Positions 57,796 to 57,963 of a stretch of DNA of 59,584 bases are shown here, piece by piece. The notes under the pieces are model-generated. The model was not told the origin of the DNA. It saw nothing but the letters and a program-made list of their open reading frames with translations, and ran no database searches. The number at the start of each line of letters is the position of its first letter. The stretch's first letter is position 1. Source of the DNA: an uncultured Candidatus Saccharibacteria bacterium (lineage in GTDB: Bacteria > Patescibacteriota > Minisyncoccia > Phycocordibacterales > PALSA-1337); NCBI GenBank assembly GCA_964406895.1, contig CAYOTK010000007.1, positions 1 to 59,584 on the forward strand, in the 5' to 3' direction. A program made the position numbers and the translations under genes.

Positions 57796-57963
57796 GAGGT
57801 CTTCATTACACAGTCTTTTGAAGACCACGATCAGCCCCATCGACAATAGGGGAAGAGTCGATGGGGCTGTCTATTCGCAGCACCATCTGAGAGTGATTAT
57901 TTAGGCTAATAGTACATGGTGCTTTGCGAAATGGTCTTCAAAAGACTGTGTAATGAAGACCTC
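57796..57963 (+). ncRNA. Second full copy of the stem+core structured element, in the same orientation as 53214..53381
   Basis: 57796-57826 is the exact reverse complement of 57933-57963. The core 57827-57932 is 106 nt, with helices 57832-44/57857-69 and 57874-86/57916-30. The outer stem sequence is unrelated to copy B except for its innermost roughly 12 bp. Confidence 0.8.

Follow-up and report, generated by a model that had tools for sequence, protein, structure and literature searches.

The DNA analysed here is a stretch of 59,584 nt (the window), in which a 168-nt intergenic element (copy C; 57796–57963, + strand) is flanked by a DEAD-box helicase gene (56478–57779, + strand; Pfam DEAD and Helicase_C) and a gene for a DsbA-like thioredoxin-fold protein (58001–58756, − strand; Pfam Thioredoxin_4 and DSBA). 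The ends of the element, 57796–57827 and 57932–57963, are 100% complementary, forming 32 perfect Watson-Crick pairs, and are separated by 104 nt. Each arm has an outer and an inner part. The outer 20 nt of the 5' arm (57796–57815, + strand; GAGGTCTTCATTACACAGTC) are locus-specific; they are the perfect complement of 57944–57963, have no other match in the window at three or fewer mismatches, and are unrelated to the arms of the two other copies described below (A and B). The inner part (57816–57827, + strand; TTTTGAAGACC plus A) pairs with 57932–57943, is shared across the family, and can be aligned with the equivalent segment of copy B and the orthologues. The 3' arm (57932–57963, + strand) consists of the inner 12 nt followed by the outer 20 nt. 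The 32nd pair is an extra A-T beyond 31 bp, the equivalent position in copy B being A.G. Between the arms lies a conserved core of 104 nt (57828–57931, + strand), predicted to fold as a three-way junction. Its P2 hairpin (57832–57869, + strand) has a 13-bp perfect stem and a 12-nt loop, AATAGGGGAAGA, and its P3 hairpin (57874–57930, + strand) is bipartite (TTCGCAGCACCAT ... ATGGTGCTTTGCGAA), with a variable distal stem-loop.

The initial annotation had placed this element between convergent DEAD-box helicase and DsbA-like genes and held that it was not a normal terminator, and we agree on both counts. There is no terminator-like site at copy C and no T-run 3' of the stem; moreover, the stem encloses a 104-nt core, unlike the short G+C-rich hairpin and U-tract of an intrinsic terminator. 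No sigma-70-like promoter consensus was seen in the core on either strand, although CPR promoters may differ from consensus, and neither a terminator-like nor a promoter-like consensus was found within or beside the copy. Elsewhere in the window, two G+C-rich hairpins with 15-bp perfect stems (40932–40968 and 51868–51904; TCGAGGTCGGACCTC...) form a second small repeat. They lie at two gene 3' ends, are 81% identical to each other, and resemble a reused terminator-type hairpin.

The window has a G+C content of ∼40%, and the neighbours of the element are housekeeping genes, including rplS, rpoB/C, dnaG, rpoD, recA, ftsK and several tRNA synthetase genes. Among named homologues, those closest to the helicase and to the DsbA-like protein come from metagenome-assembled genomes of Candidatus Paceibacterota, Parcubacteria and Patescibacteria. 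Comparison of 47 window ORFs with Pfam revealed no recombinase and no transposase, HUH and Y1 transposases included. RecA is encoded at 33989–35071 and RecO at 24252–24851. We note several other features of this region. A class I tRNA synthetase ORF (20685–24230; 1181 aa; tRNA-synt_1 and Anticodon_1) contains a histidine-phosphatase domain (His_Phos_1; residues 520–686) between the halves of its catalytic domain. A BRO-N domain ORF (1188–1658) and a Cys/His-rich ORF with an HNH-like motif and no Pfam match (2340–2840) adjoin tRNA-Leu and tRNA-His near copy A, and resemble mobile-element genes. Finally, a non-coding, G+C-rich stretch of ∼260 nt (∼600–860), running from rplS to tRNA-Leu, contains several strong hairpins; it has no Rfam match, is not a tmRNA according to ARAGORN, and has a z score of only −2.8, and may be an unrecognised structured RNA.

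Copies of the element occur at two further places. Copy B (53214–53381, + strand; 168 nt) lies between the stop codon of rpoD and the start of a gene for a UvrD/PD-(D/E)XK helicase-nuclease. Its arms, 53214–53244 and 53351–53381, form 31 perfect pairs, its core is 88% identical to that of copy C, and it scores 152.6 bits with R1, a covariance model built from the copies. Copy A (1–82, + strand), upstream of rplS, is cut by the start of the window and retains the 3' half of the core (1–51) and a presumed 3' arm of 31 nt (52–82). Its bases 1–62 are 90% identical to the 3' half of copy C, and R1 matches it with 45.2 bits, the 5' end being missing. All three copies are on the + strand, which carries most of the ORFs examined and has a positive GC skew in nearly every segment sampled, and all are sited at gene 3' ends or in intergenic regions. 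With three copies in 59.6 kb and no reading frame open across the core in both full copies, the element is non-coding and multi-copy. What the arms share is limited to the inner ∼11 bp (TTTTGnnnACC / GGTnnnCAAAA), the outer 20 bp being unrelated among A, B and C; the earlier remark that only the innermost base pairs of B and C are alike is thus borne out.

A hairpin of similar dimensions, element D (49828–49985, + strand; 158 nt), lies between rpoC and dnaG. It has perfect arms of 32 bp (−108.2 kcal/mol, z = −17.6) and a quasi-palindromic interior unrelated to the A/B/C family, and R1 does not match it. We considered D as a diverged family member and dropped the idea, as the two share just the hexamer CCACGA and fold differently. 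A similarity of D to a plant miRNA precursor in Rfam (41 bits against a gathering score of 211) reflects generic hairpin similarity. Because D combines a different interior with the same arm length, the data suggest a process or constraint acting at the level of the genome, and not something inherent in the core. The counterpart of D in a related JGI contig (L065) is at 2813–2970. It lies within a tract (window 47016–∼51990; L065 1–∼4975) that covers the 3' part of rpoC, the complete dnaG gene and the beginning of rpoD, all with 100% nucleotide identity; just two differences are seen over ∼5 kb, and both fall in the interior of D. The remainder of the region shared between the window and the JGI lineage is 76–84% identical, and the tract resembles one of recent recombination, with a boundary in the 5' part of rpoD.

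Arms of this length form a distinct class in the window. The three longest perfect inverted repeats within 400 nt measure 32, 32 and 31 bp, followed by one of 19 bp. In 100 first-order Markov simulations, the mean length of the longest arm was 11.5 bp and the maximum 16 bp. These data exclude a chance origin of the arms. Folding energies are correspondingly extreme, at −101 kcal/mol (z = −15.8) for copy C and −106 kcal/mol (z = −13.1) for copy B.

The predicted fold of the core is a three-way junction. It comprises the long closing stem (P1), a perfect 13-bp hairpin with the loop AAnAGGGGAAGA (P2) and a bipartite hairpin, TTCGCAGCnCCAT ... ATGGnGCTTTGCGAA, whose distal part varies (P3). We derived the consensus fold from an alignment of five sequences, representing two loci and three lineages. 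It contains 44 pairs, with 96.8% of cells paired; 6 of the 44 pairs have changed on both sides and only 1 on one side. The two basal pairs of P2 covary between B-type and C-type copies (GC/CG versus AT/TA), as does the P3 pair at alignment columns 67–105 (G-C versus A-U). A pseudoknot between the P2 loop and J2-3, hinted at by the comparison of B with C, was set aside when the L065 copy at site C proved to have G.A at the covarying position. Hammerhead-like motifs in the core, checked by eye, likewise failed to fit the consensus.

To assess constraint, we compared the window with L065. The cores differ at 4 of 106 positions at site B (between rpoD and the uvrD-like gene) and at 8 of 106 at site C (between the helicase and DsbA genes), the latter corresponding to 92.5% identity with copy C. 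Third codon positions in the adjacent 100–200 codons are 59.5–70% identical. The core is thus conserved at 92–96% against 59–70% at nearby third codon positions, as would be expected under purifying selection, and because it evolves far more slowly than nearby synonymous sites we regard it as probably functional. Most likely, it is a structured RNA (or single-stranded DNA) module at gene 3' ends and not junk. At site B the outer arms show no difference between the window and L065 (40/40 identical), and here the arm sequence itself seems constrained.

We then asked how widely the element is distributed. In an Rfam scan of the window only two tRNAs reached threshold and the element matched no family; the best sub-threshold matches at copy C had E values of at least 0.57, the top-scoring ones being generic miRNA or snoRNA models. 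When GTDB species genomes and JGI and ENA metagenome contigs were scanned for exact matches to the core motif GTACATGGNGCTTTGCGAA, only chance matches were obtained, mostly to one Coprococcus coding sequence. Four motifs from the core or from D gave chance matches or nothing in viral contigs, the whole element showed no similarity to phage and plasmid records, and B, C and D, translated in all six frames and concatenated, had no match in a protein database. A search with R1 of 194 kb, comprising the window and eleven related loci, found only A, B, C and their orthologues besides one weak match in a coding region (window 1216–1325; 20.7 bits), which was rejected as chance. Six more distant Paceibacterota contigs (L075–L077 and L094–L096; ∼85 kb), which are not syntenic with the window, lack perfect inverted repeats of 17 bp or longer. 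No empty site, that is, a locus without the element, was found among the contigs compared. As far as can be seen in the collections searched, the family appears confined to one narrow lineage. Full-text literature searches returned nothing specific on CPR invertons or such repeats.

Orientation was compared in consensus assemblies, using contigs that carry close homologues of the flanking proteins and are syntenic with the window. This comparison covers two sites (B and C) and about three to five lineages, with orientation coming from about three. In the window and L074, the site B core lies on the gene strand; in L065, L066 and L069, it has the opposite orientation. At site C, it is oriented as in the window in L099 and oppositely in the six JGI contigs that contain the full core (L065–L068, L070 and L071), all from one population. 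Three further contigs (L069, L072 and L073) end inside the site C core and have the same orientation as these six. The reversed copies are otherwise near-identical. L074 and L065 share 97.6% identity over the 168 nt at site B when one is inverted, compared to 88.7% in the flanking genes, and L099 and L065 share 98.6% at site C, again inverted, compared to 94.7% in dsbA.

The element is a systematic assembly breakpoint: the window itself starts inside copy A, and L069, L072 and L073 end in a core. Contigs from Logan (k = 31) stop at or inside the arms. One (L008) ends at a point equivalent to window position 57825, 1 nt before the 31-nt left arm is complete, and another (L064) ends 29 nt into an arm and also starts inside one. 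Gene content between the uvrD-like gene and the DEAD-box helicase gene varies as well. The JGI lineage has a PemK-family toxin gene here (L065 9432–9824), L064 has a gene for an 874-aa Big_7/PG_binding protein (3112–5736), and the window has nothing. In one JGI sample (L067 4173–10410), phage-like genes (Phage_rep_O, an N6_N4 methyltransferase and DUF5681) downstream of an RNase H-like gene replace the hisS–truB region of L065, probably as an integrated mobile element or prophage variant.

Regardless of orientation, each site retains its own core signature. The L065 core at site B, for example, is 95.8% identical to window copy B and 81% to window copy C. Because these site-specific signatures are shared in both orientations, the cores are, by this comparison, orthologous by site, and this argues against independent insertions as the cause of the two orientations. 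Judged from these consensus assemblies, related strains differ by an in situ inversion of the segment that the arms enclose.

Where the exchange takes place can be narrowed down at site C. In L065, the two sides of the inner arm are asymmetric, reading GGAGACC and GGTCGAC, and two mismatches result. In L099, the same two heptamers are found on swapped sides, having moved together with the core. This places the likely exchange point within the locus-specific outer 25–26 bp, and points to a homology-driven exchange rather than to a recombinase acting on a conserved site.

When the window is compared with L065, each outer arm at site C shows three substitutions and one 1-nt indel, all of them mirrored in the partner; the outermost pair alone is not mirrored. 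The initial annotation had described the arms as exactly 31 bp long and free of mismatches and G.T pairs, taking this to suggest that one arm is copied from the other at the DNA level, by foldback or template switching. For the window the description is accurate (31 bp in B and 32 bp in C, with no mismatch and no G.T pair in either full copy, and no G.U among the 94 arm pairs of B, C and D). As a rule it fails. Arms at site B have 30 of 31 positions paired in both L065 (one A.C / G.T position) and L074 (one G.A). At site C in L065, the arms exceed those of the window by 1 nt each, which is at odds with a constant arm length, and form 25 perfect pairs followed by two adjacent mismatches and five pairs, with a wobble at the outer end; in total, relatives have one to three mismatches. 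In L064, whose helicase is 96% identical at the protein level, arm sequences at both sites have strongly diverged. L098, with a DsbA protein 77% identical, has a decayed remnant at site C in which the arms no longer pair: the inner arm, J1/2 and the 5' strand and loop of P2 are followed by a deletion of ∼80–85 nt. This remnant means that the element can decay and is dispensable at site C there. Mismatches also persist in related strains, indicating that arm correction is not fast. The suggestion of DNA-level copying itself is strengthened, both by the mirrored substitutions and indel at site C and by the inversion in situ at both sites.

Template switching between the arms of inverted repeats is known to cause arm homogenisation, spacer inversion and arm expansion (PMC8604942, PMC8794818, PMC13100816). 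Our preferred reading, to which we assign a probability of roughly 0.6, is that the elements are a small, lineage-restricted family of ∼168 bp, with a core of ∼106 nt, whose arms are maintained by DNA-level exchange from arm to arm. That the two arms exchange information at the DNA level is our inference from the alignments. The route would be either template switching between the arms during replication or intramolecular homologous recombination between them. The latter is an equally available route, with RecA and RecO encoded in the window. Each exchange event could copy one arm onto the other, which would explain the mirrored substitutions and indels, the small number of mismatches and the absence of G.T pairs from the window copies. 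The same exchange could invert the spacer. An original short inverted repeat of ∼11 bp may also have extended outward into its flanks, and such extension would make the outer arms locus-specific.

This reading has points against it. In the one population sampled repeatedly, all six full-core contigs have the same orientation, flipping being seen only across lineages. The spacer of 104–106 nt is far longer than the few-bp spacers of the published cases (PMC8604942, PMC8794818). Furthermore, homogenisation alone is insufficient for the site B arms, because these are identical at 40 of 40 positions amid neutral divergence of 30–40%; this would imply either selection on the arm sequence or a recent exchange.

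The nearest known system is that of template-switch inverted repeats (the Ripley model; quasipalindrome correction). These resemble the element in having arms made perfect by copying, mirrored multi-base and indel changes, and a spacer inverted between close relatives. Mirrored changes are what we find at site C between the window and L065, and spacer inversion with the arms retained is likewise found. In such repeats the arms can also expand outward (PMC8604942, PMC8794818, PMC13100816). Documented cases have arms of ∼5–16 bp and spacers of a few bp (PMC8604942, PMC8794818), compared to arms of 31–32 bp and a conserved, structured, multi-copy core of 104–106 nt here.

We weighed five other explanations, and the data favour none of them. 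The first is that selection at the RNA level is sufficient: the arms would form a double-stranded processing or stabilising stalk around a small RNA, such as an RNase III substrate or a 3'-end protector, with pairing kept by compensatory evolution and inversions as rare by-products. Much of what we see would fit, including the conserved three-way-junction fold with its covarying pairs, the location of every copy at a gene 3' end or in an intergenic region, the free variation of arm sequence while pairing is kept, and the conservation of the element beyond that of its flanks. However, compensatory evolution would hardly leave 94 arm pairs in B, C and D without a single G.U, and the mirrored 1-nt indel in both arms is difficult to obtain by independent mutations. 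In addition, read-through of copies in the − orientation would give an antisense core, yet those copies are intact, and D has equal arm length around an unrelated interior. We therefore regard RNA-level selection alone as unlikely, if not unreasonable.

The second possibility is a programmed inverton, in which a tyrosine or serine recombinase encoded elsewhere flips all copies in a form of phase variation, changing the strand of the core that is transcribed or the flanking gene that is affected. Known invertons, such as fimS, hin and the invertible promoters of Bacteroides, are short segments between inverted repeats that occur either way round at a fixed locus, and our element is similar in these respects. 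Orientation is also concordant within each lineage (A+, B+ and C+ in the window; B− and C− in JGI; B+ and C+ in ENA), although with only three lineages the chance probability of this is ∼1/8 to 1/4, and the conserved inner arms and core could serve as a recognition site. Unlike in invertons, the inverted repeat differs from locus to locus, and the exchange at site C maps to the outer arm, which is the part that differs, in keeping with an exchange driven by homology rather than by a specific site. No invertase or other recombinase was found among the 47 window ORFs scanned, and no promoter-like site of the sigma-70 consensus type was seen in the core on either strand. The uniform orientation of the six full-core JGI contigs from one population also argues against phase variation. 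Taken together, these data make a programmed inverton quite improbable.

A related idea, which we offer as speculation with long odds, is that these are invertible RNA cassettes that operate without a recombinase, flip-flop toggling the synthesis of sense and antisense three-way-junction RNA from read-through transcripts. Read-through from rpoD, the DEAD-box helicase gene and rplS would yield the sense or the antisense core, depending on orientation, and the arm length of ∼31–32 bp might be tuned to set the rate of flipping. If true, this would be a heritable, reversible regulatory switch in a minimal-genome CPR bacterium.

The third explanation is that a mobile, MITE-like core was inserted in either orientation into the centre of pre-existing palindromes, such as terminators, making the arms target DNA and the two orientations the result of independent insertions. 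The family is indeed multi-copy with conserved terminal inverted sequences of ∼11 bp, the copies lie in intergenic 3' regions, where hairpins occur, and the outer arms are locus-specific. Yet cores at the same site share variants across strains in both orientations, which argues that they are orthologous and not re-inserted. In the window, no empty palindrome with arms longer than 19 bp was found, and no transposase; target-site duplication is also lacking, the flanks being ...GTTCC/TGCTG... for B and ...ATAT/TACAA... for C. Equal arm length at different loci is another point against insertion into palindromes. This scenario therefore looks decidedly improbable. A classical MITE, raised earlier as an alternative, fares no better: the element is multi-copy and non-coding, but conserved terminal inverted repeats are absent, the outer arms not being conserved between copies.

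Small repeats of other bacteria invite the same comparison. In the Correia elements of Neisseria, ERIC and REP/BIME/REPIN, every copy has the conserved terminal repeats, and these families are known to show target duplications or to be accompanied by a transposase (RAYT). Like these, our element is small, non-coding, multi-copy and intergenic, sits at gene 3' ends, and has terminal inverted sequences that fold into a long stem, a would-be double-stranded RNA substrate. Unlike these, it shares only the inner ∼11 bp, the outer 20 bp being locus-specific, and neither a target-site duplication nor a transposase is seen for it in the window. Assignment to REP/REPIN with RAYT (IS200/IS605-like) is similarly contradicted by the locus-specific arms and by the lack of an HUH/Y1 transposase in the window. 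At a much larger scale, flip-flop recombination in the plastid large inverted repeat inverts a single-copy region and keeps the arms identical. There, too, an intervening segment inverts between perfect inverted repeats. The plastid arms, however, are kilobases long, compared to 31 bp here, and the plastid isomers coexist in equimolar amounts, while the two orientations of our element are known from different strains.

Assembly artefacts are a fourth concern, since inverted repeats at least as long as the assembler k-mer could leave the spacer orientation or the arms unresolved, and the Logan contigs (L008 and L064; k = 31) do stop at or inside the arms. The element is nonetheless spanned intact in the JGI contigs, in L074 (a NODE_ name, indicating SPAdes) and in L099 (k141_, indicating MEGAHIT). 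With the larger k used by SPAdes and MEGAHIT, single k-mers link the flank, the arm and most of the core, resolving orientation. The orientation was reproduced in six independently assembled full-core JGI contigs, and the arms differ between strains in a mirrored fashion. We consider an artefact very improbable. Least plausible of all, to the point of being negligible, is the early suggestion that a guide or specificity segment, formed by the outer 20 bp, pairs with a phage, plasmid or chromosomal target: the arms are copy-specific, about as long as a spacer and adjoin a conserved scaffold, but each is sequestered in a perfect duplex with its partner, is inherited at a fixed locus and varies with strain background, has no second match in the window and, in the viral collection, gives nothing for B and one 18-mer for C that is estimated at about chance and does not extend, the element as a whole being without similarity to phage or plasmid records and without an effector gene nearby.

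Returning to DNA-level exchange between the arms, what sets this family apart is an unusual trio of features: a conserved, multi-copy, structured core; perfect, locus-specific arms of 31–32 bp; and inversion in situ. If our reading is correct, a CPR bacterium would here provide a clean natural example of a conserved and probably functional structured element that owes its long perfect stem to a DNA-level mechanism and not to stepwise compensation at the RNA level; the same mechanism would flip the element at fixed loci. This is relevant to the origin and persistence of long perfect stems in RNA or DNA. It would also call for caution in covariation-based RNA discovery, because DNA copying can give mirrored changes. 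To our knowledge, non-coding RNAs and phase variation are almost entirely uncharacterised in the Paceibacterota, and the family would add a previously undescribed conserved non-coding element to that phylum.
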